DNA from: Bacteroidota bacterium
GTDB lineage: Bacteria; Bacteroidota; Bacteroidia; Flavobacteriales; Flavobacteriaceae
Length of the DNA: 64,000 nt
Direction: 5' to 3'
Assembly: GCA_039798665.1 (NCBI GenBank)
Contig: JBDKFO010000002.1
Coordinates: forward strand, 3,990-67,989
The position numbers and the translations under genes are program-made. Under the pieces are notes generated by a model, which had not been told where the DNA came from, ran no database searches, and saw only the letters and a program-made list of their open reading frames with translations. Shown here one piece after another: positions 35,384 to 51,319 of this stretch (positions are counted from its first letter, which is position 1; each line of letters begins with the position of its first letter).

Positions 35384-35389
35384 GCCGCC

Positions 35390-36172
35390 ATGCAACTTGA
35401 AACATTAAAAATCGCTTGGATTCAAACCGATTTGGAGTGGGAAAATCCATCTCTAAATCGGCAACGACTTACTGAAAAAATCACTGAAATTTCCTCGGCT
35501 GTTAATCTGATTGTGTTGCCCGAACTATTTACTACGGGCTTTACCATGAACGCCCAAGTGGTAGCTGAAACCATGCAAGGCGATACAATAGCCTGGATTC
35601 AACAGGTGGCGAAAGCAAAAAACTGCGCCATTACCGGCAGTTTGGTGATTGAAGAAAAAGGAAATTTTTACAACCGATTGGTTTTTGTTTTTCCGAATGG
35701 CGATGTAAAAACCTACGACAAACGCCACTTGTTTACTTTGGCTGGAGAAGATAAAGTGTATACTCCCGGAAGGGATAAATTAATCATTGATTATAAAGGA
35801 TTTAAGATTTGTCCGCTCATTTGTTATGATTTGCGTTTTCCGGTATTTTCACGCAATACAGAAAAATACGATTTATTGCTCTTTGTGGCCAATTGGCCCT
35901 CGCCCAGAATTGCAGCCTGGGATGCCTTGCTCAAAGCTCGCGCCATTGAAAATTGTTGTTATGTAGTGAGTGTAAACCGCTTGGGTATTGACGCCAATGC
36001 GTTGGACTATCCGGGTCATTCGCAGGCCATTGATTTTGCAGGAAACTTGCTGCACGATTCAGCCTCAAAATCAGAAGTGGCCAGGGTAGAAATAGGTAAA
36101 AAAGAATTGCTTGATTTTAGAACGCGCTTTGCGTTTTTAGATGACCAAGATTGCTTTACGGTTGAAGATTAA
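35390..36172 (+). CDS. Carbon-nitrogen hydrolase (YafV/Nit2-like omega-amidase)
   Basis: Catalytic triad LPELF / YDKRHLF / ICYDLRFP. Confidence 0.92.
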   Translation: MQLETLKIAWIQTDLEWENPSLNRQRLTEKITEISSAVNLIVLPELFTTGFTMNAQVVAETMQGDTIAWIQQVAKAKNCAITGSLVIEEKGNFYNRLVFVFPNGDVKTYDKRHLFTLAGEDKVYTPGRDKLIIDYKGFKICPLICYDLRFPVFSRNTEKYDLLLFVANWPSPRIAAWDALLKARAIENCCYVVSVNRLGIDANALDYPGHSQAIDFAGNLLHDSASKSEVARVEIGKKELLDFRTRFAFLDDQDCFTVED

Positions 36173-37784
36173 CCGTTTGTTCCACATCCCAGTTGGCGCG
36201 CACATCAATTTCTTTCGGAAAATAAAACACCTCTTCGGATTGTCTTTTGGCCAAAAAATTCCCGGCATCCCACACCTTGTTCTGGTTGTCGTCATAGACT
36301 ACGCGCAGGGTATATTTTTCGGGTTTTATTAAGCTAAACGAAAGTGGTTGAAGGTTGGTAACTACGGCCTGCTCAATCACCTCGCCCGATTTGTCGGTGA
36401 GTTCAACCAATAAAGGAAAGCGTTTTGCATTGGTAAAATTTAATTGAAGGTTGGCGTATTCGGCCGTGTTTTTGGTTTCAATTTTATAGGACAAGGTGTC
36501 GTTGGTTTGCTCCATAAAATCGGTCAAGGCACCGGGCAAGAATTGAATGGTGTATTTTTCGAGCGGTTCTTTGGAAAAGGCCAAGGTTATTTTTTGGTTC
36601 CAAGTATCGTTAGCTACGGCAAATGCAACTTGTGTGGAATCTTTTCGTTTGATGCTCATTTTGGATGCATCCCATTTTACAATAGGCGTAGATGTCTCTA
36701 GTTCAAACTCGTTTTTCAAGGGTAAAACACCACTAAACACTGGCTTTATACTCAACGAATCGACTTTTAGTCCTTTGAGTTTTACGACAAAGTTTTGCAG
36801 GTCTTTTCCATTGGTTACTGCTACGGCTACCGAATCAATTTTGGCTTTTTCTTCTTTGGTTTTGGTAGGCCATTTAATGGGTTTATGCCAAACTTGAATA
36901 GAATCTTTTTTAGGGAATTTGGTAAGGAGTACCGGGTAATTTTCGCCCGCTTTTGCCATACTTACTTTTATATTACTTGGTTCGCCTTCGTAGCCCAATA
37001 ACAGTCGATTGGCCGAAGCTTGTGATGCTTTTACGGTTTTATTGGCAGGAACTTCTTTAAATAATTTCAGGTTAAACACACTGTCAGTTGGTACCGTAAT
37101 GAATTGCTGATGAAATCCAATTTTATCTTCTTTGGGATTGAAACGGTAATTGCTGTTTTCGTCTTTCAGGGCAACCAACAGGTATTTTCCAGCTTTGAGG
37201 TGTCCCAATTCAAAAGTGGTGGCGCTGTCAAGCGTGTTGGTCACGTAGCGTGGGTTTTCCTTGTAAATAATAGAATCGGTATATTTTTCATTGGCTTCGT
37301 AAAGCATCACCGACACAAAATGATCGGTTTTTTTGTCGTGCGCATCGGCGATTGTGCCTTTGATCGACAGGGAATCAATATAACTTCCGGTGGAGCATAA
37401 AAACTGAAATTGGCGCAACGGATTGCCCTCGTTGTTGTCTTGAATGCTTTCGCCAAAATTAAAACTATAGGTCGTATTGGGCGCTAAGGTGTCTTTTATT
37501 TTTAATGTAATGGTTTTACTGGCTGTAGATGGCGTAATTTCAGGTTGGTATTTGAGCGGTGGAGATATGATGAGTTGTTTGTTGACGTTTTTCAATTTCA
37601 CATATTCGTCAAAGGTAAATTGTACCGTTTTGGCGTTAAAATTGGTCGTGTAATTTTTGGGGATACAAATTTTAAGCACCGGAGCCAAGGTGTCTTTCAA
37701 ACCGCCAGAAATTGATCCTCGCTTGGCGCAGCTGCTAAGCAAAATGACTACTAAGAGCAAGACCATACGGATTTTTGAACTCAT
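36156..37784 (-). CDS. Ig-like (Big_5) domain lipoprotein
   Basis: Lipobox LSSC-AKRG, GGLKDTLAP, FTFDEYV, TTYSFNFG..I.DNNEGN; conserved Bacteroidota architecture. Confidence 0.8.
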   Translation of the reverse strand: MSSKIRMVLLLVVILLSSCAKRGSISGGLKDTLAPVLKICIPKNYTTNFNAKTVQFTFDEYVKLKNVNKQLIISPPLKYQPEITPSTASKTITLKIKDTLAPNTTYSFNFGESIQDNNEGNPLRQFQFLCSTGSYIDSLSIKGTIADAHDKKTDHFVSVMLYEANEKYTDSIIYKENPRYVTNTLDSATTFELGHLKAGKYLLVALKDENSNYRFNPKEDKIGFHQQFITVPTDSVFNLKLFKEVPANKTVKASQASANRLLLGYEGEPSNIKVSMAKAGENYPVLLTKFPKKDSIQVWHKPIKWPTKTKEEKAKIDSVAVAVTNGKDLQNFVVKLKGLKVDSLSIKPVFSGVLPLKNEFELETSTPIVKWDASKMSIKRKDSTQVAFAVANDTWNQKITLAFSKEPLEKYTIQFLPGALTDFMEQTNDTLSYKIETKNTAEYANLQLNFTNAKRFPLLVELTDKSGEVIEQAVVTNLQPLSFSLIKPEKYTLRVVYDDNQNKVWDAGNFLAKRQSEEVFYFPKEIDVRANWDVEQTVNLQP

Positions 37785-37862
37785 ATACTCGGGATTAATT
37801 CGCCCCGCAAAATAACGATTTTATATGCTGTAACGGAAACATTTTACCCAAATCTTCCACAA

Positions 37863-38546
37863 TTAGGCCGAGAAAGCCATACATACCACCGACACCTTCG
37901 CGCCGGGAATTTTCAGCAAAGCGCGGGCACAGGCTTCAAGCGTAGATCCGGTAGTGAGCACGTCATCCACCAACAAAAAATGAAGGTTTTCATGTTCCTT
38001 TTGAGGCAGGGCTTCAAAGCGGGTTTCATTAACAAGCGCCGTGCGCAACAACAGGGATTTTTTAGTTTGCGTTTTTGAATATGAATTTCTGTGCAACAAT
38101 TGATCTTCATAGGGTATGGCAAAAACACTTGCCAATGCCTTTCCAAATTCGGCCACTTGGTTGTAGCCCCGTTCACGCAATCGTTTGGCGTGTAAGGGCA
38201 CCGGAATTACGACATCAAATAGGTGTAATTGCGCAATTGACAAAAGCTCATGAGCATACCAAAAGCCCAAGCATTGGCCAATTAGTGGTTGTTTTTTATA
38301 TTTTAAATTTTGAATCAGTTCTTGCACAATTCCATTTTTGTGGTAATACAGAAAGGCTGATGCAAATTCAATAGGAACCTTGCCGTAAAACTTTTGCAAT
38401 GCTTCGTTGTTGGCAATTTGATGGTGTTGGGTTTGTGGAATTTGGTGCCGGCATTGTACACAAATAAGGACTTCTTGCGGCAAAAGAAGGCGGTGACAGC
38501 CCGCACAAATTTTAGGAAAAAACAGGTTTACAATCGATTCAAACAT
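37863..38546 (-). CDS. comF: ComF-family protein (double Zn ribbon + phosphoribosyltransferase)
   Basis: FFPKICAGC...ICVQC, VPLH...RGYNQ, LLVDDVLTTGSTL. Start ATG 38546. Confidence 0.9.
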   Translation of the reverse strand: MFESIVNLFFPKICAGCHRLLLPQEVLICVQCRHQIPQTQHHQIANNEALQKFYGKVPIEFASAFLYYHKNGIVQELIQNLKYKKQPLIGQCLGFWYAHELLSIAQLHLFDVVIPVPLHAKRLRERGYNQVAEFGKALASVFAIPYEDQLLHRNSYSKTQTKKSLLLRTALVNETRFEALPQKEHENLHFLLVDDVLTTGSTLEACARALLKIPGAKVSVVCMAFSA

Positions 38547-38627
38547 AAGGCGTATAATTAGAGCTTTAAAAGTATAAAAAACCCGAATTAGTTGTGTTTT
38601 TATTTTAATCCATCTCAATCCTTTTTA

Positions 38628-38635
38628 TATTTTTG
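38628..38635 (+). promoter_or_regulatory. -7 element (TATTTTTG) only 4 nt before the glyQS ATG
   Basis: TATTTTTG-cagc-ATG. Confidence 0.6.
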
Positions 38636-38639
38636 CAGC

Positions 38640-40184
38640 ATGGCAAAACAAGAAGATTTATTTAAAAATGTCGTTTCGCACGCAAAAGAATACGGATTTA
38701 TTTTTCCGTCGAGCGAAATTTATGACGGACTAAGTGCAGTATATGATTACGCACAAAATGGAGTGGAGTTAAAGAAAAACATCCGCGAATACTGGTGGAA
38801 ATCAATGGTGCAAATGCACGAAAACATTGTGGGGCTTGATGCCGCCATTTTGATGCATCCCACCACTTGGAAAGCTTCGGGCCACGTAGACGCCTTTAAT
38901 GATCCGTTGATTGACAACAAAGATTCCAAAAAAAGATACCGCGCCGACGTCTTGATTGAAGACTACGCCGAAAAATTAAACCTCAAAGCCAAAAAAGAAA
39001 TCGAAAAAGCCCGCGAGCGTTTTGGTGAAAGCTTTGACGAAGAACAATACAAAACCACCAATCCCCGCGTGATGGAATACCTTTCTAAGGAAAGAGAGAT
39101 TCTTGAGCGCATGGGTCGTTCTTTAGGAAACGGTGATTTAGAAGATGTAAAAGCGCTCATTGAAGAACTCGAAATTGCCGATCCCGAAACCGGTTCGCGC
39201 AACTGGACCGAGGTGCGTCAGTTTAACTTGATGTTTGGCACCAAACTGGGAGCTTCTGCCGATAGCGCGATGGACTTATACTTGCGACCAGAAACAGCTC
39301 AGGGAATTTTTGTCAACTTTTTGAATGTACAAAAATCGGGTCGCATGAAGATTCCGTTTGGAATTGCACAAACTGGAAAGGCCTTTAGAAATGAAATCGT
39401 AGCACGTCAGTTTATTTTTAGAATGCGCGAATTTGAGCAAATGGAAATGCAATTTTTTGTGCGTCCAGGCGAAGAAATGAAGTGGTATGAATACTGGAAA
39501 ACCACTCGTTTAAATTGGCACTTGTCTTTGGGCTTGGGAAAAGAAAATTACCGTTTTCATGACCACGAAAAATTAGCGCATTACGCCAATGCCGCTGCCG
39601 ATATTGAATTCAATTTCCCTTTTGGGTTCAAAGAATTAGAAGGCATTCACTCTCGCACCGATTTTGACTTGAAAGCACATGAGGAGTTTTCAGGTAGAAA
39701 GATGCAGTATTTTGACGCCGAGCTCAATCAAAATTACACGCCTTATGTAGTCGAAACCTCTGTTGGATTAGACCGTATGTTCTTGGCCGTTTTTGCCACT
39801 GCCTTAAAAGAAGAAGTTTTAGAAGATGGTTCAACGCGCACCGTATTGCAGTTGCCTTCGGTGTTGGCTCCTACCAAAGCAGCCGTGTTGCCCTTGGTCA
39901 AAAAAGATGGCTTACCCGAATTGGCTCACGAAATCATCGACGAACTCAAATGGGATTTCCATGTAACCTATGACGAAAAAGATGCAGTAGGTCGTCGTTA
40001 CCGACGTCAAGATGCGTTAGGCACGCCATTTTGTATTACAGTTGATCATCAATCCTTAGAAGACAAAACCGTAACCATTCGTCACCGAGACAGCATGAAG
40101 CAAGACCGCGTCGCGATTACCGAATTGAAAGCCATCATAGAAAATGAGGTTTCCATGAAAAATTGGTTGCTAAAAACGAAATAA
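38640..40184 (+). CDS. glyQS: Glycine--tRNA ligase (homodimeric alpha2 type)
   Basis: SEIYDG, LRPETAQGIF, GKAFRNEI, FRMREFEQME, GRRYRRQD. Start ATG 38640. Confidence 0.96.
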   Translation: MAKQEDLFKNVVSHAKEYGFIFPSSEIYDGLSAVYDYAQNGVELKKNIREYWWKSMVQMHENIVGLDAAILMHPTTWKASGHVDAFNDPLIDNKDSKKRYRADVLIEDYAEKLNLKAKKEIEKARERFGESFDEEQYKTTNPRVMEYLSKEREILERMGRSLGNGDLEDVKALIEELEIADPETGSRNWTEVRQFNLMFGTKLGASADSAMDLYLRPETAQGIFVNFLNVQKSGRMKIPFGIAQTGKAFRNEIVARQFIFRMREFEQMEMQFFVRPGEEMKWYEYWKTTRLNWHLSLGLGKENYRFHDHEKLAHYANAAADIEFNFPFGFKELEGIHSRTDFDLKAHEEFSGRKMQYFDAELNQNYTPYVVETSVGLDRMFLAVFATALKEEVLEDGSTRTVLQLPSVLAPTKAAVLPLVKKDGLPELAHEIIDELKWDFHVTYDEKDAVGRRYRRQDALGTPFCITVDHQSLEDKTVTIRHRDSMKQDRVAITELKAIIENEVSMKNWLLKTK

Positions 40185-40203
40185 CGTTACCTATAAATTA
40201 TTC

Positions 40204-40235
40204 AATGGCTCGCTGAAAAGGGAGCCATTTTTTTT
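40204..40235 (+). terminator. glyQS terminator
   Basis: aatggctc...gagccatt followed by a T-run. Confidence 0.8.
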
Positions 40236-40377
40236 GCTATAAACACAGAAATTCCCCCTATAATTGTTAATAATTATTGAATTTCTTGTGCATAAGTCTA
40301 GCATTTTCCGTTGGCTAATGGTCTAATTTAGCCCTTGACTAGGTCTGTTTTGTTGATAAAGCCTAGCCTGCAAGCAA

Positions 40378-41271
40378 ATGAAGCATACTTTCATCATTGT
40401 GGACGACCAGCCCGAAAGTATTGAAAATGTGATGGCCATCGCCAGTCATTTTCAGCAGCTGGTTTGTTTGGCCTCGGCCACTACCTATGAAGATGGCTTG
40501 AATGCTATTTTAGAGCACAGCCCGCAGTTGGTGTTCTTGGAAATTTCCCCCGATGACAAAAAAAGCAATTTATCCTTGCAACTCATCAACGAATTGCACC
40601 GGTTTTTGCGCATTGTTCCCGAGATCATTGTCATTACCAAAAACAAAGACTTGGCTTTTGAAGCCATGAAATACGAGGTGTTGGATTATTTACTGAAACC
40701 ACTGGATGTAAATGAACTGCGCAAAACGATTTTAAAATACGAGAAGTTTGTGTTTGACAACCCGCGACTCTTCACCCAACCCAAAACATCCCGAACGGCG
40801 ATAGAGGTGGTAGAGCCCGAGATCATCTCGTCACCGCCTGCTGCAGAATCTCCGGATTCACAGAATTCGACCTCGGCCAAAATCATTGAAGCCATACCTG
40901 GGCTTTCATTGGCCCAAGAAAAACCCTTGATCATCTGTGTGAAATCCTATGGAGATTACCGTTTTATCGAAGCACGTGATATTTGTTATTTGCAGGCCGA
41001 CAACAATTCTACCGATATTCACTTGAATTCAGGCGAGATGATTACCGCCTTTAAAACGCTCAAACACTTTGAGAGCGTATTGACTAATCCTTTTGTGCGC
41101 ATTCACAACAGCTATATTGTAAATGTTGATTATGTGTCGCGCATCCACACCGGAAACTCGGTATGCTACATTAAAAATACCACTACCAAACTGCCATTTT
41201 CCAAGTCTTATAAGGAAAATATTGACGGAATTATTGCCGCAATTACCAATGGCAATTATTTAGAAATCTAA
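40378..41271 (+). CDS. LytTR-family response regulator with atypical receiver (phospho-Asp replaced by Glu)
   Basis: IIVDD...PQLVFLEI...DYLLKP receiver; low-complexity linker; LytTR domain (DICYLQADNNST...TLKHFE...FVRIHNSYIVN). Confidence 0.9.
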   Translation: MKHTFIIVDDQPESIENVMAIASHFQQLVCLASATTYEDGLNAILEHSPQLVFLEISPDDKKSNLSLQLINELHRFLRIVPEIIVITKNKDLAFEAMKYEVLDYLLKPLDVNELRKTILKYEKFVFDNPRLFTQPKTSRTAIEVVEPEIISSPPAAESPDSQNSTSAKIIEAIPGLSLAQEKPLIICVKSYGDYRFIEARDICYLQADNNSTDIHLNSGEMITAFKTLKHFESVLTNPFVRIHNSYIVNVDYVSRIHTGNSVCYIKNTTTKLPFSKSYKENIDGIIAAITNGNYLEI

Positions 41272-41309
41272 AAAATGCCATCCACTCGGATTTGGCTATC
41301 ATTCACTAT

Positions 41310-41339
41310 CAAACGGCTACTATCTACCACAAACGCCTA
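41310..41339 (+). promoter_or_regulatory. Direct-repeat pair upstream of the peptide gene, candidate LytTR site
   Basis: CAAACGGCTA (41310) and CAAACGCCTA (41330): 9/10 identity, 20-bp period. Confidence 0.4.
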
Positions 41340-41444
41340 AAAACAGTAGATTACAAGAGACATGCTATCTAGTTTTACACCGTGAATCACTGACGATTTA
41401 CATGAAACACGAAATAAAACACACATAAATAAACGTCTCAAATT

Positions 41445-41690
41445 ATGAAAAAAACAGTATTAACTTTAGGATTGTTTTCATTGATGATGATCTTAACCTC
41501 GTTCACTAGCCCAGAGATAGGGGGAACACAAAGTGCTCCAAGAAAATTCTCTGAACAAAATGATAATTTAGTATTAGAAATTGGAGGAACACAAAGTGCT
41601 CCAAGAAGAATGTTTGAAATTGGAGGAACACAAAGTGCTCCAAGAAAAGTATTTGAAATTGGAGGAACACAAAGCGCTCCAAGAAAATAA
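41445..41690 (+). CDS. Secreted repeat-peptide precursor (4 x EIGGTQSAP-R[K/R]), putative signalling peptide
   Basis: Sec-type signal MKKTVLTLGLFSLMMILTSF; repeats at aa 24-34, 45-55, 58-68 and 71-81; synonymous differences between copies; own terminator. Confidence 0.85.
   Translation: MKKTVLTLGLFSLMMILTSFTSPEIGGTQSAPRKFSEQNDNLVLEIGGTQSAPRRMFEIGGTQSAPRKVFEIGGTQSAPRK
41514..41687 (+). repeat. Four 33-bp coding repeats (last three at a 39-bp period)
   Basis: ga(g/a)at(a/t)gg(g/a)ggaacacaaag(t/c)gctccaagaa(a/g)a at 41514, 41577, 41616 and 41655. Confidence 0.95.
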
Positions 41691-41714
41691 ATAGTTTACC
41701 ACTAGATAATACAG

Positions 41715-41742
41715 AGCTTCCAATTTATTGGAAGCTTTTTTT
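41715..41742 (+). terminator. Terminator after the peptide gene
   Basis: agcttccaa-ttta-ttggaagct-tttttt. Confidence 0.8.
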
Positions 41743-41787
41743 ATTTTATATATTTTACATACTTTAGCCAAAATACATTTTTTGCTG

Positions 41788-43827
41788 TTGAAATATATTT
41801 ATTACATATTATCTGCCTATTTAATTTTTAGTTGTAATAAAACTAATAATTCTAATGCAATTGAAAATAATGCTTCGCTAGATAGTCTTTCAATTTATTT
41901 AGCTAATACTCAAAACGAAAATAAACCAAGTGCTAATCGAATAAAAAGCAGTGATAAAGCATTTAAGTTATTAAAAAGTCAAAAAAACACCTCGTATACA
42001 AGAGAACAACTTTATAATATTGCTAAATTTTATTACGAAAGTAAACTGGATTTTAAATTTAAAAACAGTGTTTTCATTTTAATTGAAAACTCTAAAAAGG
42101 AAAATGATTTCAAATTACTTTCTAAATCATATAATTTATTAGGGAATCATTATATTAATTTAAGTAAAAACGATAGTGCATATTATTATTTGCTGAAATC
42201 AGAGAAACTTTTCATTAAAGAAAAAGACAGTGTTTCATTAGGAAAAAACTATGTTGACAAAGCTTTCGTACAGTTATATGAAAATGATTATTCAGGTTGT
42301 GAACAATCTTCGATTACTGCACTAAATTTTCTTAAAAACAATTCAGACAAACAACTAGAATACGACGCTTATAATTTAATTGGAATTAGCGCCAATGAAT
42401 TAAAGAGTTATGATAATGCTATAGATTACCATAATAAAGCACTCAATATAGTTATCCAGAATAATATAGTTTCAGAATTTCATTATGAAGCTAGTTCAAA
42501 GAACAATATAGGAGTTGTTTATCAAAACATAAATAAACATAAAAAAGCAATTGAAATTTTTCAGAGTGCATTAAAAGAAAAAAATCTCTTAGTTGACAAT
42601 CCAAGCTTATATGCTATTATAACCGATAATTTAGCTTATTCTAAGTTTAAGACAAAAGATTTTAATTCATTACCAGCATTGTTTTATGAATCTTTAAGTA
42701 TTAGAGAAAAATATCAAATGTCTTCAGGTATAATTGCTAATAAAATTCATCTCTCTGAATTTTATTCATTTAAAAATGACACGATAATGTCTCAGAATTT
42801 TGCAATTGAGGCTTTAAAACTTGCAAAAAAAACAAAAATTTCTGGTGACATGTTAGCTTCTTTAAGGCAATTATCACTTGTTGAACACGTAAATTCAGCT
42901 AAATATTCTAAAGAATACATTAAAATCAGTGACAGTATTCAATTGGAGGAGCGTAAATCAAAAGACAAATTTGCACGTATTGCTTTTGAAACTGATGAAA
43001 TTATATTGGAAAAAGACAAATTAGCCGAACAAAATAGAAGCTTGTTGTACTTTTTTGTGGGCACTTTATTTGTAGGGTTATTGCTATTTGTGATTCGAAC
43101 ACAGCGTGCCAAAAACCGAGAATTGGTTTTAAAACAGCAGCAACAAAAAGCCAATGAAGACATCTATAATTTGATGATTTCTCAGCAAGCCACAATTGAA
43201 GAAAGTCGCGAAAAAGAAAAGAAAAGAATTGCACAAGAACTGCATGATGGGGTATTGGGCCGATTGTTTGGTGCCCGATTAAATTTGGATAGTTTAAACC
43301 GATTTACCGACGAGGAAGCCATTGCCAACCGATTTAATTACCTCAATGAACTTAAAAATATTGAGCAGGACATCCGGGAAATCTCACACGATTTGAATCG
43401 CGAAAAATACGTGCTGATTAATAATTTTGTGGCCATTGTGAATAATCTTATTGAAGAACAGAAAAACGCATTCAGTGCTTCGGTGTCTTGTGTAATTGAT
43501 GAAAAAATAAAATGGGATCAAATAGCCAATACGGTTAAAATTAACCTATACCGCATGTTGCAGGAATCGTTACAAAACTGTAATAAGTACGCCAATGCTT
43601 CAAAAATTGAGATCTTATTTGAATTACAGGAAGATTGCATTTATTTTAGCGTAGCGGATAATGGTATTGGATTTGATGTAAAATCAAAGAAAAAGGGGAT
43701 TGGTCTTCAAAATATGATCGCTCGAACCACCGAATGCAATGGGCAACTCGAAGTGATTTCTCAAAAAGGTTCGGGAACAAGCATAAACATTAAGGTACCC
43801 TTAACCGAACAAAAGGCAGAACACTAA
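41788..43827 (+). CDS. TPR-sensor histidine kinase 1 (HisKA_3 + HATPase)
   Basis: Likely TTG start 41788 (MKYIYYILSAYLIFSC, paralleling kinase 2; ORF track starts at 41728). TPR-like helices (AYNLIGISANELKSYDNAIDYHNKAL), one TM segment, H-box RIAQELHDG, LYRMLQESLQN, DNGIGF, GIGLQNM. Confidence 0.9.
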   Translation: MKYIYYILSAYLIFSCNKTNNSNAIENNASLDSLSIYLANTQNENKPSANRIKSSDKAFKLLKSQKNTSYTREQLYNIAKFYYESKLDFKFKNSVFILIENSKKENDFKLLSKSYNLLGNHYINLSKNDSAYYYLLKSEKLFIKEKDSVSLGKNYVDKAFVQLYENDYSGCEQSSITALNFLKNNSDKQLEYDAYNLIGISANELKSYDNAIDYHNKALNIVIQNNIVSEFHYEASSKNNIGVVYQNINKHKKAIEIFQSALKEKNLLVDNPSLYAIITDNLAYSKFKTKDFNSLPALFYESLSIREKYQMSSGIIANKIHLSEFYSFKNDTIMSQNFAIEALKLAKKTKISGDMLASLRQLSLVEHVNSAKYSKEYIKISDSIQLEERKSKDKFARIAFETDEIILEKDKLAEQNRSLLYFFVGTLFVGLLLFVIRTQRAKNRELVLKQQQQKANEDIYNLMISQQATIEESREKEKKRIAQELHDGVLGRLFGARLNLDSLNRFTDEEAIANRFNYLNELKNIEQDIREISHDLNREKYVLINNFVAIVNNLIEEQKNAFSASVSCVIDEKIKWDQIANTVKINLYRMLQESLQNCNKYANASKIEILFELQEDCIYFSVADNGIGFDVKSKKKGIGLQNMIARTTECNGQLEVISQKGSGTSINIKVPLTEQKAEH

Positions 43828-44489
43828 TGGAAAAGGCATTACAAATTTTATTTATAGACGATCATCCTACCATAATTGAAGGGTATAAAAGTATTTTGAA
43901 AGAAAAATACACCGACGATCAGCTCGAAGTTTTCGCAGCGTACAGCAGTGAGTATGGGTATGATAAACTTTTTCATTCCAACCGAGTATATGACATCGTG
44001 GTTTTGGATATTGGATTGCCGGCCTATTTACCCCAAAAAATTGAATCGGGTGAAGACCTAGCTTTTTTGATCCAAAAACATTTTCCTAAAACCAAAATTT
44101 TGATTTCCACCTCGCATTTGGAAGCTTTTATTTTATACAACATTGTAAAAAAAGTAAATCCGGATGGCCTGATGATTAAAAGTGATTTTAAATCGGAAGA
44201 GTTTATTTTGGCTGTGGATAAAGTACTGCAAGGGGAGGTTTATTACAGCCAAACCGTTCGAAATGCCATTAAAGAAGTGGCCGTACAAAACGATGCGCTA
44301 GATTCCATAGACCGCCGTATTGTGTCGCTGCTATCAAAAGGGATTAAAACCAAGAACATCCCCTCGCATTTGGGTATATCATTGAGTGCAGTCGATAAAC
44401 GGAAAGCCCAAATCAAGGACTTTTTCAATATCGTCAAAGGAACAGATGAAGACATTATTCGAGAGGCCACCAAGCGCGGATTAATCTAA
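43827..44489 (+). CDS. Response regulator, NarL/LuxR-like
   Basis: FIDDHP...VLDIGLP (Asp intact)...IKSD; C-terminal HTH; start overlaps the kinase 1 stop (TAATG). Confidence 0.9.
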   Translation: MEKALQILFIDDHPTIIEGYKSILKEKYTDDQLEVFAAYSSEYGYDKLFHSNRVYDIVVLDIGLPAYLPQKIESGEDLAFLIQKHFPKTKILISTSHLEAFILYNIVKKVNPDGLMIKSDFKSEEFILAVDKVLQGEVYYSQTVRNAIKEVAVQNDALDSIDRRIVSLLSKGIKTKNIPSHLGISLSAVDKRKAQIKDFFNIVKGTDEDIIREATKRGLI

Positions 44490-44568
44490 TTTTAACGTTT
44501 ACTGCAGATTTTCTGCATTTTAGGGCTGTATTAGCTTCTTACTTTAGCTCAACATAAAGCCATTACCC

Positions 44569-46578
44569 ATGAAGTATATTTGGATAGGAATAGCCCTGCT
44601 TTTATTTTTTGGATGTAAAAAACAAGAAAACGATATTAGTGAAAGGGAACAAATAAAAACCCTTTTATTAAGCGGTTCAAACAGAAAACTATCTTTTAAA
44701 TCAAGAAATTTTCTTAATGACAAGGTGTACCTTAAATTAAATAATCATAAAAATGATTCTATTAATAGAGAAAATTATTTTGAATTAGCATGGAATTATT
44801 TTACAATTAACGACATTGAAAAATTTAAAAAAATTACTGATGAAGTATTTTTATTAAGTAGGCAGAGTAAAAGTAAAAATCACTTAGCTCAATCAAATAA
44901 TTTGTTAGGTATTTACTATGAAACAAAAAGTATAAATGATAGTGCTTTTTATTATTATCTCAAAGCTGAAAAGATCTATAAAGCTGCAAATTTAGAAAGT
45001 AAATTATGTAGTATATATAGGAATAAAGCACTAGTTCAATACTATGTTAATGATTATTTGAATGCAGAAAAATCATTGGTTGATGCATTAATCATTGCAA
45101 AAAAATACAAACTAACTTACGATATTTTTAAGATTTATTCTTCTTTAGGTATAATATCTTACGATCAAGATGATTTTAATAAAGCAAATGAGTTTTTTGC
45201 TAAAGCTGAAATTATACTTAATGAAAATAGCTCACTATTTGACAACAATGAAATAGCGTTCTCTTGTTGCAATAAAGGGGTTAATTACTTTAGTCAAGGT
45301 AAAATTTTAAATTCTATAACAGAGTTTAATAAAGCATTAATTCTTCCTAACATAAATATAGAATATCCAGATATATACACAAGAGTTCTAGATAATTTAG
45401 CAAAATCATTTTTATATAATTCTTCTTATCAAAATTCTTTTTTGTTATTAAAAGAATCAGAAAAAATCAGAAAAAAATATAAAATTGTTTTTGGCAAAAA
45501 CTTCAACCGTCTTTATCTCTCCCACTATTATGCCGCAATACACAACTTGCCTAAGGCCAATGCCTATGCATTAGAAGCATTGGCCATCTCCAAAAATTTT
45601 AAGGCACCAAAAGACCAATTGCTGTGCTTGAAGCAGCTCATTAAAATCAATCCCCAAAAAGCCCTGCACTACAGCAGTCAGTACATTTCCTTGTCGGACA
45701 GCATGCAAAACATGGAGCGTCAAACGCGCAATAAATTTGCCAAAATTGCCTTTGAAACCGATGAAATTACCAAAGAAAAAGAAGAAGTCGAAGAGCAAAA
45801 CTCCATTATTTTATGGGTGTGCATTGCTATTTTTGTTATTGCGGTTTTGCTGTTTGTAATTGGGAGACAACTATTAAAGCAAAAAGAATTTCGCTTGCAG
45901 CAAGTACAGCAAAAAGCCAACGAAGAAATTTACAACCTGTTGTTGGCCCAACAAAACAAAATTGATTCAGCACGCAATAACGAAAAAGAACGCATATCCA
46001 AAGACCTGCATGACGGGGTGCTCAACCGCTTGGCCTCAACGCGCATGAACCTCGATTCTTTGCATAACCAGCCTAGCTCAGAGAATGTGCAAAAATCAAA
46101 AATCCTGATTGATGGCATCCAAGATGTCGAGAAAGAAATTCGCAACATCTCACATGATTTAAACAAAGAAGTATTTGCCAAATCGGTGAGCTTTGTCAAG
46201 GTAATTAGCACTTTTATGGAAGATCAATTTGAGGCAACGAAAACGCGAAATTTCTTAGAATTTGATGCCAAAATAAACTGGGATCTTATTCCAGGTTTGG
46301 TAAAAATTCATTTATACAGAATTGTACAAGAAGCAGTACACAACATCAATAAACACGCCCGAGCCCAATCGATCATTATAAATTTTTTGGCCATAGATGG
46401 CGGAATTAAATTGGAAATATTTGATGATGGGGTAGGATTTTTGTTAAACAAAAAGAAAAAAGGAATAGGTTTGCAAAACATTTACAGTCGCACCGCCTCC
46501 TGCAATGGAACGGTCTTAATAGAATCGCAAAAAGGAATAGGAACTACCCTTAAATTGTTTGTTCCGTATCAAGAATAA
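44569..46578 (+). CDS. TPR-sensor histidine kinase 2 (HisKA_3 + HATPase)
   Basis: MKYIWIGIALLLFFGC; TPR-like helices; TM segment; H-box RISKDLHDG, LYRIVQEAVHN, DDGVGF, GIGLQNI. Confidence 0.9.
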   Translation: MKYIWIGIALLLFFGCKKQENDISEREQIKTLLLSGSNRKLSFKSRNFLNDKVYLKLNNHKNDSINRENYFELAWNYFTINDIEKFKKITDEVFLLSRQSKSKNHLAQSNNLLGIYYETKSINDSAFYYYLKAEKIYKAANLESKLCSIYRNKALVQYYVNDYLNAEKSLVDALIIAKKYKLTYDIFKIYSSLGIISYDQDDFNKANEFFAKAEIILNENSSLFDNNEIAFSCCNKGVNYFSQGKILNSITEFNKALILPNINIEYPDIYTRVLDNLAKSFLYNSSYQNSFLLLKESEKIRKKYKIVFGKNFNRLYLSHYYAAIHNLPKANAYALEALAISKNFKAPKDQLLCLKQLIKINPQKALHYSSQYISLSDSMQNMERQTRNKFAKIAFETDEITKEKEEVEEQNSIILWVCIAIFVIAVLLFVIGRQLLKQKEFRLQQVQQKANEEIYNLLLAQQNKIDSARNNEKERISKDLHDGVLNRLASTRMNLDSLHNQPSSENVQKSKILIDGIQDVEKEIRNISHDLNKEVFAKSVSFVKVISTFMEDQFEATKTRNFLEFDAKINWDLIPGLVKIHLYRIVQEAVHNINKHARAQSIIINFLAIDGGIKLEIFDDGVGFLLNKKKKGIGLQNIYSRTASCNGTVLIESQKGIGTTLKLFVPYQE

Positions 46579-46591
46579 TAACTACAAAATT

Positions 46592-47263
46592 ATGGCACAA
46601 TTGGTTCGTGTATTAATGGTTGACGACCATCCTTTTATTATTGAAGCGTATAAAAATGCGATTAAAGGCTACAATACCAAGGGGCTATATGAATTTGAGA
46701 TTACCCAAGCCAAAGACTGTAAAACAGGCTATGAAGCCATTATCAACGAAGACAACCCACACTATGACATTGCCTTTTTTGATTTGAGTATGCCCACCTA
46801 CGAAGAAAAAGGGATTCAATCGGGTGAAGATTTGGCTTTGTTGGTCAAAGAACGCCTCCCCGCTTGTAAAATCATCTTGCTCACCATGCATTCGGAGATG
46901 CTCAAAATCAATACCATCATCAAAAACATCAACCCCAATGGGCTTGTGATCAAAAATGATTTAACCTTTGATGAATTGTTGTTGGCTTTTGATAAGATCT
47001 TAAAAGACGAAAATTACTACAGCCAAACGGTTGTGAAATTAGTAAGTCAAATTCCGTTTGATTCCAATGAAATAGATGTGTTTGACAAACAATTATTGTT
47101 TCATTTGTCAAAAGGAGTACCAAACGCCGACTTGGCACAATATGTTCCTCTTGCAGCTGCGGTCATAGAAAAACGCTTGACAAATTTAAAAGCGGTACTC
47201 GAAATTCCCCACGGCACCCACGCCGAATTGGTTCAAGAGGCCAAAAACAAAGGGATCATTTAA
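46592..47263 (+). CDS. Response regulator, NarL/LuxR-like
   Basis: MVDDHP...FFDLSMP (Asp intact)...IKND; degenerate C-terminal HTH; paralogue of 43827-44489. Start ATG 46592. Confidence 0.88.
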   Translation: MAQLVRVLMVDDHPFIIEAYKNAIKGYNTKGLYEFEITQAKDCKTGYEAIINEDNPHYDIAFFDLSMPTYEEKGIQSGEDLALLVKERLPACKIILLTMHSEMLKINTIIKNINPNGLVIKNDLTFDELLLAFDKILKDENYYSQTVVKLVSQIPFDSNEIDVFDKQLLFHLSKGVPNADLAQYVPLAAAVIEKRLTNLKAVLEIPHGTHAELVQEAKNKGII

Positions 47264-47265
47264 GT

Positions 47266-48315
47266 TTATTCTTCAGCCAAGGCATTCCAGCCTCGGGCTT
47301 TTAGCGGTATTTTAGTGTTGGCTCGGGTAATGAGGTGCATGCCTTCAGCGGCTTCAACCATATGTCCAATAATGGTAAAATTGGGATTGCCTTTTAGTTT
47401 GTCAAAATCGTCCATTTTTACCGTAAAGAGCAATTCGTAGTCTTCGCCACCATTGATGGCAACAGTTGTACTGTCCAACTGAAATTCTTCGCACACCGAG
47501 ATCAACTGCGGATCCAGCGGCAATTTATCTTCATACAAATTACAACCCACTGCCGATTGTTTGCACAGGTGTAAAATCTCGCTCGACAACCCATCTGAAA
47601 TGTCAATCATTGAGGTTGGATTTATTTCCAGGGCATGCAACAAGGTGCGCACGTCGGTTCTTGCTTCAGGCTTGAGTTGGCGTTCGATGAGGTAGGAATA
47701 AGCTTCTAGATCGGGTTGCGAATGGGGGTTTACTTGAAACACTTGTTTTTCGCGCTCCAAGACTTGCAAGCCCATATAGGCCGCACCCAAATCGCCACTC
47801 ACCACCAAGAGATCATTTACTTTGGCTCCGTTTCGGTACACCAATTCATCTGCCGAAGCTTCCCCAATCGCGGTGATGCTCAAGATTAATCCTTTTTGAG
47901 ACGAAGTGGTGTCGCCACCAATTACATCTACTTTATACGCTTTGGCAGCCAAGGCAATTCCGGCAAATAATTCTTCCAAGGCCTCCAACGGAAATCGGTT
48001 GGAAACGGCCACCGAAACCGTAATTTGGGTAGGCTTTGCATTCATGGCACAAATGTCAGAAACATTCACCACCACGGCTTTGTAGCCCAAGTGTTTGAGT
48101 GGCATATAGGCCAAATCAAAATGCACGCCTTCAATGAGTAAATCGGTAGAAATTACCGCTTTTTTATCGGCAAAATCCAACACCGCTGCATCGTCGCCTA
48201 TGCCTTTGAGGGTTGACGGTTGCGTAATTTCAAACTGATTTGTCAAGTGATCAATTAAGCCAAATTCGCCCAATTGAGAAAGGCTGGTGCGTGCCGGTGA
48301 TTTATCTTCTAGCAT
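47266..48315 (-). CDS. thiL: Thiamine-monophosphate kinase
   Basis: GEFGLI, GIGDDAA, STDLLIEGVHF, NVSDICAMNA, GGDT, IDISDGL, GGEDYELLFT. Confidence 0.95.
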   Translation of the reverse strand: MLEDKSPARTSLSQLGEFGLIDHLTNQFEITQPSTLKGIGDDAAVLDFADKKAVISTDLLIEGVHFDLAYMPLKHLGYKAVVVNVSDICAMNAKPTQITVSVAVSNRFPLEALEELFAGIALAAKAYKVDVIGGDTTSSQKGLILSITAIGEASADELVYRNGAKVNDLLVVSGDLGAAYMGLQVLEREKQVFQVNPHSQPDLEAYSYLIERQLKPEARTDVRTLLHALEINPTSMIDISDGLSSEILHLCKQSAVGCNLYEDKLPLDPQLISVCEEFQLDSTTVAINGGEDYELLFTVKMDDFDKLKGNPNFTIIGHMVEAAEGMHLITRANTKIPLKARGWNALAEE

Positions 48316-48335
48316 GGAAATATTTGGTAAAAACC

Positions 48336-50132
48336 TTAGTCATTCAATTTCAAAACGGCCATAAACGCTTCTTGCGGAATTTCTACATTCCCCACTTGGC
48401 GCATGCGTTTTTTTCCTTTTTTCTGTTTTTCGAGTAGTTTTCGTTTACGCGAAATATCCCCGCCATAACACTTGGCCGTTACGTCTTTACGCAAAGCTTT
48501 GATGGTTTCGCGGGCAATAATTTTGGCGCCAATGGCCGCCTGAATCGGAATATCAAATTGTTGTCTAGGAATTAATTCGCGCAGTTTTTCGCACATTTTT
48601 TTTCCAATGTTATAGGCATTGTCTTCGTGAATCAAAGCCGACAAGGCATCCACCGATTGGGCGTTGAGCAGTACATCCAACTTTACCAATTTGGACGCAC
48701 GCATACCAATTGGAGAATAATCAAACGAAGCGTAACCTTTGGAAACCGTTTTCAAGCGGTCGTAAAAATCAAATACAATTTCGGCCAAGGGCATATCAAA
48801 ATTCAATTCCACGCGCTCGGTGGTCAAATACGTTTGGTTGGTAATCAAGCCTCTTTTTTCGATACAAAGTGACATCACGTTCCCTACAAAATCGGCTTTG
48901 GTAATGATGGTCGCTTTGATAAACGGTTCTTCTACACGGTCCATACGGGAAGGCTCGGGCAAGTCTGAAGGGTTGTTTACCACAAAACCGTTCTCGGGAT
49001 CTTTTTTGGTGTAGGCCAAATACGATACGTTGGGAACTGTGGTAATCACAGTCATGTTAAACTCGCGTTCCAAGCGTTCTTGGATAATTTCCATGTGCAA
49101 CATGCCCAAGAATCCGCAACGGAATCCAAAGCCCAATGCGGCCGAACTCTCGGCTGTAAAAACTAAAGAGGCGTCGTTGAGTTGCAATTTCTCCATCGAG
49201 TTGCGCAGCTCTTCGTAATCTTCGGTATCCACCGGATAAATCCCAGCAAATACCATGGGTTTTACGTCTTCAAACCCGGTAATCATATTGGTGGTTGGCG
49301 TTTTGGCGTCGGTAATGGTGTCGCCCACTTTTACTTCTTTGGCCTCTTTGATGCCCGAAATCAAGTAGCCCACATCGCCAGCGCCAATACTATTTTTAGG
49401 CACTTGGTTGAGTTTCAAGGTACCCACCTCGTCGGCAAAGTACTCGTTGCCGGTGGCCATGAATTTTATTTTTTGTCCTTTTTTGATTTCGCCATTTTTC
49501 ACGCGAAAGATAACCTCAATCCCGCGAAAAGGATTGTAATGTGAATCAAAAATCAAGGCTTGCAACGGCTCTTGTGGATCGCCTTTTGGTGCCGGAATTT
49601 TCTCAATAATGGCGGCCAAGATATTTTCAACCCCAAACCCGGTTTTCCCCGAGGCATGGATAATGTCTTCTAGTTTACAGCCCAACAAATCAATGATGTC
49701 GTCGCTCACTTCTTCGGGATTCGCGCTAGGCAAATCAACCTTGTTCAAGACCGGAATAATTTCCAAGTCATTTTCCAAGGCCAAATACAAATTCGAGATG
49801 GTTTGCGCCTGAATACTTTGGGCGGCATCTACAATGAGCAAAGCACCTTCGCAGGCAGCAATAGAACGGGAAACTTCATACGAAAAATCGACATGCCCGG
49901 GGGTGTCGATGAGGTTCAAAATATATTCTTCGCCTTTGTACGTGTATTCCATTTGAATCGCGTGACTTTTGATGGTAATCCCGCGCTCACGCTCTAGATC
50001 CATGTTGTCGAGCAATTGGGCTTTTTCTTCGCGCGCCGTTACGGTTTGCGTGGCGCCCAATAGGCGATCGGCCAAGGTGCTTTTTCCGTGATCAATATGG
50101 GCAATAATGCAAAAATTTCGAATGTGTTTCAT
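48336..50132 (-). CDS. lepA: Elongation factor 4
   Basis: [57 protein letters not shown]. Confidence 0.98.
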
Positions 50133-50150
50133 GAGTGTATGCGTGTGTTA

Positions 50151-50227
50151 TTTTGGGCAAATCCCTGCCTTGCATTTCGGGTCGGGCTTTTCGCATTGCG
50201 CGGCAATTTGCTGCAATCCCTTTTGCA
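50151..50227 (+). ncRNA. Degenerate Flavo-1-like structured element in the lepA upstream region
   Basis: gggc..atccc...gggtcgggcttttcgc...gctgcaatccc resembles the flavobacterial GGGCG..CC..GGTCGGGCT.TCCGC..GCAATCCC repeat/RNA motif as I recall it; not verified by search. Confidence 0.35.
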
Positions 50228-50329
50228 TTTAAGCTGCAAATATAAAGCAAACTTTTCATTAATAATTTGGTTTTCCCACAGCCCAAAACAAACCGACAAA
50301 AAAGTGTAATTTTGGCCCAAATTTGAACG

Positions 50330-51319
50330 ATGATTAAAATTGGCCCCATAGAACTTCCCGATTTTCCGCTGCTTTTGGCACCCATGGAAGACGTGAGCGA
50401 TCCGCCGTTTCGACGCCTGTGCAAAACCCATGGTGCCGATTTGATGTTTAGCGAATTTATTTCCTCTGAGGGACTCATCCGCGACGCGATTAAAAGCCGT
50501 CAAAAACTAGACATTTTTGATTACGAACGGCCCGTAGGAATCCAGATTTTTGGGGGCGACGAAGAAGCCATGGGCTTATCATCGAAAATAGTCACCACCG
50601 TACAACCCGATATCATCGACATCAATTTTGGTTGTCCGGTAAAAAAAGTAGTGTGCAAAGGCGCCGGGGCAGCGGTACTCAAAGACGTCGATTTGATGGT
50701 GAAACTCACCCAGGCGGTCATCAAAGGCACCAATTTACCCGTTACCGTAAAAACGCGTTTGGGTTGGGACGAAAACACCATTAACATTGACGAGGTGGCC
50801 GAGCGCTTGCAAGACATCGGCGTGCAAGCCTTGTCTATTCACGGCCGAACCCGCGCTCAACTCTACAAAGGCGAAGCCGATTGGTCGCACATTGCCCGGG
50901 TAAAAAACAACCCGCGCATTACCATGCCTATTTTTGGCAACGGCGACATTGATTCGCCTGAAAAAGCGCTGGAATACAAAAACAAATACGGCATAGACGG
51001 CATCATGATAGGCCGCGCTGCGATAGGCTATCCTTGGATTTTCAACGAAATCAAACACTACATGGTCACTGGCGAACATTTGCCCAAACCCACCATGGCC
51101 GATCGCGTGGAGGCCGCCAAAAACCACTTAAGCTGGGCGATGGAATGGAAAGGCGAACGCTTGGGCATTGTAGAAACCCGTCGTCATTACACCAATTATT
51201 TTAAGGGAATTCCCAACTTTAAAGACATTCGCTCGCAGTTGGTCACCGAAGATGAGCCAGAGGTTTTATTTGGTTTATTGAATCGTGCGGCCGAAACCTA
51301 CCGCGATTTGGTGTTGTAG
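50330..51319 (+). CDS. dusB: tRNA-dihydrouridine synthase B
   Basis: LAPMEDVSD, DINFGCP, TVKTRLG, IHGRTRAQ, GNGDI, MIGRAA; TAATTTTG promoter at 50307-50314. Confidence 0.95.
   Translation: MIKIGPIELPDFPLLLAPMEDVSDPPFRRLCKTHGADLMFSEFISSEGLIRDAIKSRQKLDIFDYERPVGIQIFGGDEEAMGLSSKIVTTVQPDIIDINFGCPVKKVVCKGAGAAVLKDVDLMVKLTQAVIKGTNLPVTVKTRLGWDENTINIDEVAERLQDIGVQALSIHGRTRAQLYKGEADWSHIARVKNNPRITMPIFGNGDIDSPEKALEYKNKYGIDGIMIGRAAIGYPWIFNEIKHYMVTGEHLPKPTMADRVEAAKNHLSWAMEWKGERLGIVETRRHYTNYFKGIPNFKDIRSQLVTEDEPEVLFGLLNRAAETYRDLVL

Follow-up and report, generated by a model that had tools for sequence, protein, structure and literature searches.

The stretch analyzed here, referred to as the window, comprises 64,000 nucleotides (nt) from a member of the Flavobacteriaceae (Bacteroidota; GenBank assembly GCA_039798665.1, contig JBDKFO010000002.1, positions 3,990 to 67,989 of the forward strand). 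Between glyS and thiL it carries six genes on the + strand, encoding a regulator with a LytTR domain, a small peptide precursor and two pairs of a histidine kinase and a response regulator, designated HK1-RR1 and HK2-RR2 (Table 1). Two AT-rich blocks lie within this locus, one reaching from the peptide gene through the sensor part of HK1 and the other covering the sensor part of HK2. An earlier note, made from the letters of the sequence, had described such AT-rich sensor domains fused to kinase domains of host GC content, and had suggested that the sensor modules, perhaps with the peptide, were exchanged by recombination to change ligand specificity. To follow this up, the window's own locus (WIN) was compared with related loci (L0xx), genomes (G0xx) and proteins (P0xxx). 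Beyond what the earlier note had proposed, there are two separate cassettes, both of which normally covary with the peptide.

Both kinases contain a lipobox, a region of tetratricopeptide repeats (TPR), one transmembrane (TM) helix and the HisKA_3 and HATPase_c domains, and in both of them PF07730 and PF02518 score above the gathering threshold. The HK2 sensor is 28% identical to that of HK1. In detail, HK1 consists of a periplasmic TPR superhelix (amino acids 30-365), followed by a stalk motif (42970-43002), the TM helix (about 43042-43098), the HisKA_3 H-box (43237) and the HATPase domain. Models of the NarL/MctR type cover RR1 and RR2 from end to end, with scores under the equivalog cut-offs. 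The peptide gene, whose product has no Pfam or NCBIfam match, ends 98 nt ahead of the HK1 start, and this gene order is kept in about 20 congeners.

Table 1. Features of the locus between glyS and thiL, in coordinates of the window
Feature	Position	Strand	Description
LytTR regulator	40378..41271	+	Orphan response regulator, receiver and LytTR DNA-binding domain (Pfam Response_reg, LytTR); directly 5' of the peptide gene
Promoter-region element	41296..41340	+	Conserved, 45 bp, TCATTCACTATCAAACGGCT-N-TCTACCAYAAACGCC; upstream of the peptide gene
Peptide precursor	41445..41690	+	Open reading frame (ORF); 81 amino acids, secreted; leader MKKTVLTLGLFSLMMILTSFTSPEIGG, then four tandem cores EIGGTQSAPR[KR] with short spacers
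Cassette 1	41526..42870	+	GC 0.25; peptide cores, terminator and intergenic DNA, HK1 lipoprotein signal, complete HK1 TPR sensor
Terminator hairpin	41713..41738	+	11-bp stem followed by a T run; after the peptide gene
HK1	41788..43827	+	Proposed TTG start at 41788; lipobox MKYIYYILSAYLIFSC; Pfam TPR_12, HisKA_3, HATPase_c
Third mosaic block	43401..43827	+	HATPase end of HK1; reassorts independently of pherotype
RR1	43827..44489	+	NarL/LuxR-type response regulator with normal Asp acceptor (Pfam Response_reg)
HK2	44569..46578	+	Paralogous lipoprotein-anchored TPR/HisKA_3/HATPase kinase (ORF, Pfam)
Cassette 2	44622..45493	+	GC 0.23; HK2 TPR sensor, residues ~18-308
RR2	46592..47263	+	NarL/LuxR-type response regulator; ATG at 46592, 223 amino acids as called in relatives

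In blastn comparisons with the window, the conspecific locus L034 aligned at 97.1% over 34898-41525, at 98.2% over 42802-44621 and at 97.2% over 45461-50821, whereas no alignment at all was obtained at 41526-42801 and at 44622-45460. Identical break points were found in L037, L038, L040 and L042, and the flanks of the non-aligning loci match at 84-99%. The loci L036, L039 and L041 align to the window without interruption and carry, like WIN, the sensor version that we call type A; the other version, type B, is found in L034, L037, L038 and L042, and a variant of it, B', in L040. WIN, L034, L036 and L038 form a first lineage with flanks that are 95-99.9% identical, and L037 and L039 form a second one, at about 89% identity to the first, and each of the two lineages has both alleles.

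The left junction of cassette 1 falls within the peptide gene, directly after the PEIGG codons, and the right junction at 42802-42875 (LAKKTKI..LKQLSLVEH). Cassette 2 starts directly after the HK2 lipobox FFGC and ends at 45461-45493, at GKNFNRLY. A conserved motif, FA[RK]IAFETDEI, follows in both kinases, namely the stalk motif of HK1 and its counterpart at 45736-45768 in HK2, just where the earlier note had seen it. Its observation that the compositional shift falls near this motif in HK1 and somewhat earlier in HK2 holds as well, as the right junctions precede it by about 100 nt and about 250 nt, respectively.

Segment by segment, WIN and L034 are 99.9% identical in the LytTR gene, 54.9% in cassette 1, 99.5% in RR1, 57.9% in cassette 2 and 97.6% in the rest of HK2. 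The nucleotide 'identity' between types A and B amounts to 53-56% in cassette 1 and to 53-58% over both cassettes, and the sensor versions share 34-44% of their amino acids (38-44% for HK2, compared with 93-100% for the rest of that protein within a lineage). The leader, the kinase halves and the regulators are 95-100% identical within a lineage. The exchange thus described concerns blocks swapped in frame at fixed junctions, which occur as homologous but very divergent versions in Flavobacterium genomes whose flanks differ by at most a few percent (95-99.9% identity). The type A cassette is itself lineage-specific, being 85.6% identical between the lineages. The proposed exchange of sensor modules by recombination is therefore supported by the alignment of L034, which is interrupted at the two blocks only, and by the recurrence of the same junctions in other assemblies.

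The peptide takes part in this exchange, as the earlier note had thought possible, since its cores lie in cassette 1 and covary with the sensor type. The leader is common to all close relatives (identical in nine loci) and the cores differ by allele: loci of type A carry four copies of EIGGTQSAPR[KR], those of type B three or four copies of EIGGQESRGSRRI[TV], and L040 carries the B' core EIGGQESRNGKFS. Within an allele type the core is invariant and the spacers vary. Across the genus and a large protein collection, the same leader stands ahead of at least 12 different tandem cores in 2-6 copies; nearly all cores from the protein collection start with [ED]IGG, and several congeners have other core types, e.g. 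VDLVGGASAGGNKK and NIDGGSRQIKTDN. The succession of conserved leader, hypervariable tandem core and TPR kinase is syntenic throughout the genus. In 12 of the 13 loci the peptide and both sensors, that of HK1 and that of HK2, are of one type, and this coupling holds although the 1.8 kb that separate the cassettes recombine in the HATPase block.

Protein searches with the kinase half and with the sensor half of HK1 returned discordant neighbors, that is, kinase halves that are 93-100% identical and carry unrelated sensors, and the reverse. The kinase half of P0001 is practically the same as that of the window and its sensor is unrelated. P0019 has a sensor 100% identical to that of the window and a kinase half that is 92% identical; this kinase half is in turn nearly identical to that of P0014, which has the other sensor. 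In total, five kinase backgrounds were each found with both sensor types. Congruent trees for the two halves would have spoken against an exchange, but the trees are strongly incongruent: the sensor type changes once on the sensor tree (support 100) and eight times on the kinase tree, and an approximately unbiased (AU) test on the kinase data rejects the grouping of the A-type sequences (delta lnL 370, p = 1e-48).

The synonymous divergence (dS) within a sensor type is similar to that of the flanks, for which values of 0.5-0.8 were obtained. Between WIN and L039 (type A) it is 0.91 for the HK1 sensor and 0.67 for the HK2 sensor, and between L034 and L037 (type B) 0.42 and 1.08, respectively; between the types it is saturated. 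It follows that the polymorphism is at least as old as the split of the lineages, and it was either maintained across them or exchanged early. The alleles are of old standing, occur in more than one lineage and do not go back to a recent one-off import. The ratio of nonsynonymous to synonymous divergence within a type is 0.06-0.25 for the sensors, indicating purifying selection, compared with 0.02-0.08 for the kinase halves.

Recombination at the locus is not confined to the two cassettes. In the HATPase block of HK1, WIN is 99.3% identical to L034 and L036 97.4% identical to L038, whereas WIN and L036 share 79%. The flanks of L042 match the window at 92-95%, yet all genes of its module (the equivalent of 41526-47263) are deeply diverged, with 73% for RR1 and 76% for the kinase half of HK2. 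In L041, too, the whole module from the peptide through RR2 is much more diverged than its flanks. This points to the existence of whole-module alleles besides the sensor-only cassettes, as judged from the loci compared, and hence to a nested mosaic.

HK2 is broken by stop codons in L037 (9777-11716) and appears truncated in L041 (9784-11810). Because of these disruptions, the second kinase may be dispensable in some strains.

Base composition was surveyed on two scales, with 22,884 windows of 900 nt covering the genome of 2.31 Mb and with windows of 300 nt at the locus. In the local scan, GC is 0.22-0.28 at 41600-42950 and 0.22-0.25 at 44600-45500, compared with 0.34-0.39 in the kinase half of HK1, 0.40-0.42 at 45500-46250 and 0.43-0.46 in the flanking housekeeping genes. 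The stretches 41526 to about 42870 and 44622 to about 45490 are the two lowest in GC of the entire genome; their 900-nt minima of 0.243 and 0.233 lie about 5 standard deviations (sd) below the genome mean (0.412, sd 0.033). The contrast between TPR-coding and kinase-proximal parts that had been counted by hand in the earlier note is thus borne out by both the sliding GC and the genome-wide ranking. Its description of the kinase halves as having host GC is correct insofar as they exceed the sensors, but at 0.35-0.38 they still remain somewhat under the genome mean.

Expected values for the sensor parts were calculated from their own amino acids and the codon usage of the genome, whose ORFs have a mean GC at third codon positions (GC3) of 0.428 (sd 0.06). 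The GC3 of the HK1 sensor is 0.169 instead of an expected 0.387 and that of the HK2 sensor 0.151 instead of 0.384; total GC is 0.242 instead of 0.314 and 0.233 instead of 0.317, respectively. As both measures fall below the expectation, amino acid composition covers only about half of the drop; roughly one half stems from the Asn/Lys/Tyr/Ile-rich composition and the other from AT-ending synonymous codons.

All alleles in all lineages are AT-rich (GC 0.22-0.27). In congeners of low GC (about 32-33%), GC3 is equal in the sensor and kinase halves, and the sensor lags only in genomes of higher GC, that is, in the genome of WIN and in L010 (G003; 0.22 in the sensor vs 0.38 in the kinase half) and L023 (G016; 0.31 vs 0.54, orthologous kinase). 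A third paralogous TPR/HisKA_3 kinase (L003, G000:C11:2639-4606) also has an AT-rich sensor half, with a GC3 of 0.21 vs 0.33. A small lipoprotein-like ORF (MKPNFLVKLFLLTIVCVSLNSC...) precedes this kinase, and a search with the L003 DNA of the genome behind L037 gave no match. The other stretches of lowest GC in the genome (G000 C25:301-1601, C6:75701-77201, C3:1-1101, C7:105001-105901 and C11:77701-78701) hold genes of the flexible genome, namely one for an AraC-type membrane regulator, one for a polysaccharide flippase like Wzx and uncharacterized genes at contig ends, which fits a general rule that exchangeable loci are AT-rich.

Two lines of evidence suggest that third positions in the cassettes are gaining GC. 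Changes polarized by parsimony, a method biased in this setting, give a ratio of AT->GC to GC->AT of 3-5:1 in the cassettes vs about 1:1 in the flanks. In simulations, mis-polarization alone yielded ratios of 1.1-1.5:1, rising to as much as about 3.5:1 where sites are saturated, so that the polarized counts are not decisive because part of the excess can be mimicked in this way. A custom two-state non-stationary maximum-likelihood fit to five B-type loci rejected stationarity at third positions (likelihood-ratio test 9.0, p = 0.003, GC3* 0.46), but it is model-dependent, places the root GC3 implausibly near 0 and is not significant over all positions jointly. The AT-richness could be a legacy of a Flavobacterium gene pool low in GC, with slow amelioration since then, or it could reflect a locally lower equilibrium GC, e.g. 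via reduced recombination between unlike alleles.

The AlphaFold model of HK1 has a mean pLDDT (predicted local distance difference test) of 82.6, with values above 90 over the TPR part. In this model, cassette 1 ends at the meeting point of the TPR superhelix (residues 30-365) and a long stalk/TM/DHp helix (370-503). The sensor is modeled as a soluble TPR superhelix of 335 residues with a lipobox and a single TM helix, and is not polytopic; the TPR domain is assigned to the periplasm because it is situated between the lipoprotein signal and the TM helix. Its best fold matches are the eight-repeat peptide-binding TPR domains of LGN/Pins (TM-score of about 0.7, normalized to the target), and those of the kinase core are DesK and VraS.

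Synteny of the regulator gene ahead of the peptide gene extends from close to distant relatives. In the protein, the phospho-acceptor region reads PQLVFLEI, with Glu in place of Asp, in WIN and likewise in all eight close relatives, and no cognate LytS-type kinase was found near the gene. The promoter-region element between both genes contains a 10-nt direct repeat, CAAACGGCTA at 41310 and CAAACGCCTA at 41330, with a spacing of 20 nt. It is recognizable ahead of the peptide gene throughout the genus, even where the intergenic DNA around it has diverged between congeners, and is a candidate operator of the adjacent LytTR regulator. Matches to sigma-70-type promoters were not used, as their number was at chance level (28 seen vs 26.5 expected).

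From these features a mechanism can be proposed. In the most parsimonious reading, the precursor would be exported by Sec and cut into units of about 11-13 residues, and HK1 and HK2 would take up these units in the concave channels of their periplasmic TPR superhelices. From there the signal would pass via the long stalk/TM/DHp helix to the HisKA_3 cores and on to the NarL-type regulators RR1 and RR2. The LytTR regulator may act on the direct repeat ahead of the peptide gene. Where leader, stalk and kinase sequences are conserved, homologous recombination would move whole sets of peptide and sensors, and several alleles might be kept by frequency-dependent selection for private 'dialects'.

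Taken together, we consider it likely, with a probability of roughly 0.8, that a chromosomal peptide-signaling locus, comprising the LytTR regulator, the secreted multi-copy peptide and the pairs HK1-RR1 and HK2-RR2, has its allelic specificity cassettes in the two AT-rich blocks. A wider proposal is somewhat less secure but still favored by us, namely that Flavobacterium, and probably many Flavobacteriaceae, possess a genuine peptide-based cell-to-cell signaling or kin recognition. It would employ an alpha-factor-like polyprotein exported by Sec, peptides of the [ED]IGG type and periplasmic TPR kinases as their readers, with pherotypes that would be under balancing selection across species and move as sets of a peptide and two receptors.

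Several points weigh against such an interpretation. That the peptide is the ligand of HK1 and HK2 is suggested by co-variation and adjacency in the sequences, and signaling between cells requires a peptide of this size to pass the outer membrane two times. According to Pfam and NCBIfam, none of the six genes of the locus encodes a processing, modification or export function (protease, prenyltransferase, ABC exporter). The single exception to the coupling, L043, combines a peptide and an HK1 sensor of type A with a B-like N-terminus of HK2 (3658-3951), which is 68% identical over 81 amino acids to the B-type locus L042 vs 33% to the A-type locus L044. Either the coupling of HK2 is non-obligatory or this 3.9-kb contig is chimeric, the latter being possible because it is a short contig from a metagenome. 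Related loci in general come mostly from metagenome assemblies, and the caveats of the non-stationary fit given above belong here as well.

The exchangeable alleles might be real without the peptide being the ligand, if the sensors tracked another polymorphic cue, such as a surface glycan, a product of a competitor or a phage component, and the peptide (e.g. an antimicrobial or matrix peptide) were hitch-hiking in the first block. Peptide cores and HK1 sensor do lie side by side on the DNA, so that their co-variation alone could be linkage; L043 uncouples the second block, and no family match assigns a function to the peptide. The HK2 sensor, however, is 1.8 kb away across recombining DNA and still matches the peptide type in all loci but this one, on five kinase backgrounds. 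Moreover, the left junction lies inside the peptide gene, exactly between conserved leader and variable core, the pairing of a peptide with a TPR kinase is kept across the genus in spite of hypervariable cores, and the TPR fold is of a kind that binds linear peptides. We therefore regard a hitch-hiking peptide as unlikely. A recent one-off import of the blocks from a low-GC donor into this genome only, with neither a maintained polymorphism nor a functional meaning, appears very improbable. It would agree with the low GC3, a classic mark of foreign DNA, with the apparent gain of GC at third positions and with the flexible nature of the other lowest-GC regions, e.g. that of the Wzx-like flippase gene. 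Yet both alleles are equally AT-rich in all lineages, and each occurs in at least two lineages with a divergence like that of the flanks, so that both must be long resident. In addition, the replacement is homologous and in frame, with recurrent junctions and without mobile-element genes, and among 5.8 billion proteins there was no near-identical donor, the best sensor identity outside the clade being at most 64%.

Least probable of all is that no cassettes are exchanged and that the contrast is a mere by-product of TPR amino acid composition or of assembly chimeras between co-occurring strains. The Asn/Lys/Tyr/Ile-rich sensors do lower the expected GC to 0.31, and many of the loci are metagenomic. 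An AT bias due to composition alone, which the earlier note had set against its own suggestion, is nevertheless not compatible with a GC3 of 0.15-0.17 where 0.38 is expected, nor with the equal GC3 of both halves in low-GC congeners. As for chimeras, the same mosaics were seen in independent assemblies from NCBI, ENA, JGI and Logan, in clusters of 7-18 member sequences, and the lineage-specific A cassettes (85.6%) are unlike chimeras from a single donor. Both explanations were rejected on the grounds of the GC3 deficit, the congener GC3, the recurrent break points and the lineage-specific A cassettes.

Strain-specific dialects of peptide pheromones are textbook biology of Gram-positive bacteria, and full-text literature searches returned no description of peptide pherotypes in Bacteroidota. 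If the proposed signaling is true, the locus would extend the described pherotype systems beyond Gram-positive bacteria for the first time and would indicate a class of ligands for orphan kinases with periplasmic TPR domains in Bacteroidota, e.g. FimS of P. gingivalis. It supplies natural matched sets of two or three peptides, each with two sensors that would be their cognates, in near-identical backgrounds, and such sets are suited for tests of ligand specificity. In addition, it offers a clean case of a polymorphism that free-living freshwater bacteria share across species, and the sharp AT-rich signature that marks the specificity cassettes could serve as a cue for scanning genomes.

Among known systems, ComQXPA of Bacillus subtilis combines a hypervariable signal peptide and N-terminal sensor with a conserved cytoplasmic kinase part and regulator, which define communication groups (PMC4008528, PMC4408185). 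ComP is a kinase with HisKA_3 (PF07730) and HATPase_c domains and ComA a regulator of the NarL/GerE type (PMC4008528), the same classes to which HK1/HK2 and RR1/RR2 belong. In contrast, the ComP sensor is polytopic with 8-10 TM helices, whereas here a soluble periplasmic TPR superhelix is combined with a lipobox and one TM helix. ComX is single-copy and isoprenylated by ComQ, whereas the present precursor is of the Sec type with four tandem cores and no modification gene. A further difference is the number of receptor kinases, two here and one in ComQXPA, and the phylum in which the present locus occurs is diderm.

A TPR-type superhelix as receptor of a short linear peptide that is ribosomally synthesized and exported by Sec is typical of the RRNPP systems of Bacillota (Rap, NprR, PlcR, PrgX and Rgg with peptides of the Phr/PapR type), which the present locus would resemble if the peptide has the proposed role; for PlcR-PapR a pherotype polymorphism is cited as well (in PMC4408185 and PMC4873490). 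RRNPP receptors are, however, cytoplasmic, bind a re-imported peptide and are fused to helix-turn-helix or phosphatase domains, whereas the present TPR domain forms part of a histidine kinase. Since it is periplasmic, the locus is not an RRNPP system, and its proteins matched no RRNPP family of Pfam. Within Bacteroidota, FimS of Porphyromonas gingivalis is a sensor kinase with a periplasmic domain of about eight TPR motifs, the signal of which is unknown, and for FimS-FimR neither an adjoining peptide gene nor allelic cassettes are described (PMC11053733). HK2 shares with FimS the periplasmic TPR sensor and weakly matches its NCBIfam model NF053520, but is not a FimS equivalog because its score of 25.8 bits falls short of the cut-off of 600; HK1 gave no hit. 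The precursor also recalls that of the yeast alpha-factor, in which one signal peptide is followed by several identical units that end in basic residues and are separated by short spacers; this is an analogy only, without homology and across kingdoms.

In agr of Staphylococcus and in comCDE and blp of Streptococcus, variation is concentrated in a block that takes in the mature peptide and the sensor part of the receptor, the signaling parts are conserved and alleles are shared across lineages. Here too, the hypervariable block consists of the peptide cores and the sensor, with conserved kinase core and regulator; the gene for the secreted peptide adjoins a kinase gene, and there are several alleles per species with a sensor tree incongruent with those of the kinases and of the species. 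As with AgrA, ComE and BlpR, a LytTR-type regulator and a direct repeat adjoin the peptide gene. In contrast to agr and comCDE, the kinases are of the HisKA_3 type with NarL-type regulators, not HPK10 kinases with a LytTR regulator, and the LytTR protein has a Glu acceptor and no cognate kinase. Two common features of pherotype loci are absent, namely a dedicated processing or export gene (AgrB, ComQ, ComAB) and a polytopic, membrane-embedded sensor (AgrC, ComD, ComP), the place of the latter being taken by the TPR domain. Lacking a processing gene, and having instead a periplasmic TPR sensor and a multi-copy precursor exported by Sec, the locus is not a member of the agr or comQXP families, but it behaves like the pherotype loci agr, comQXP and comCDE.

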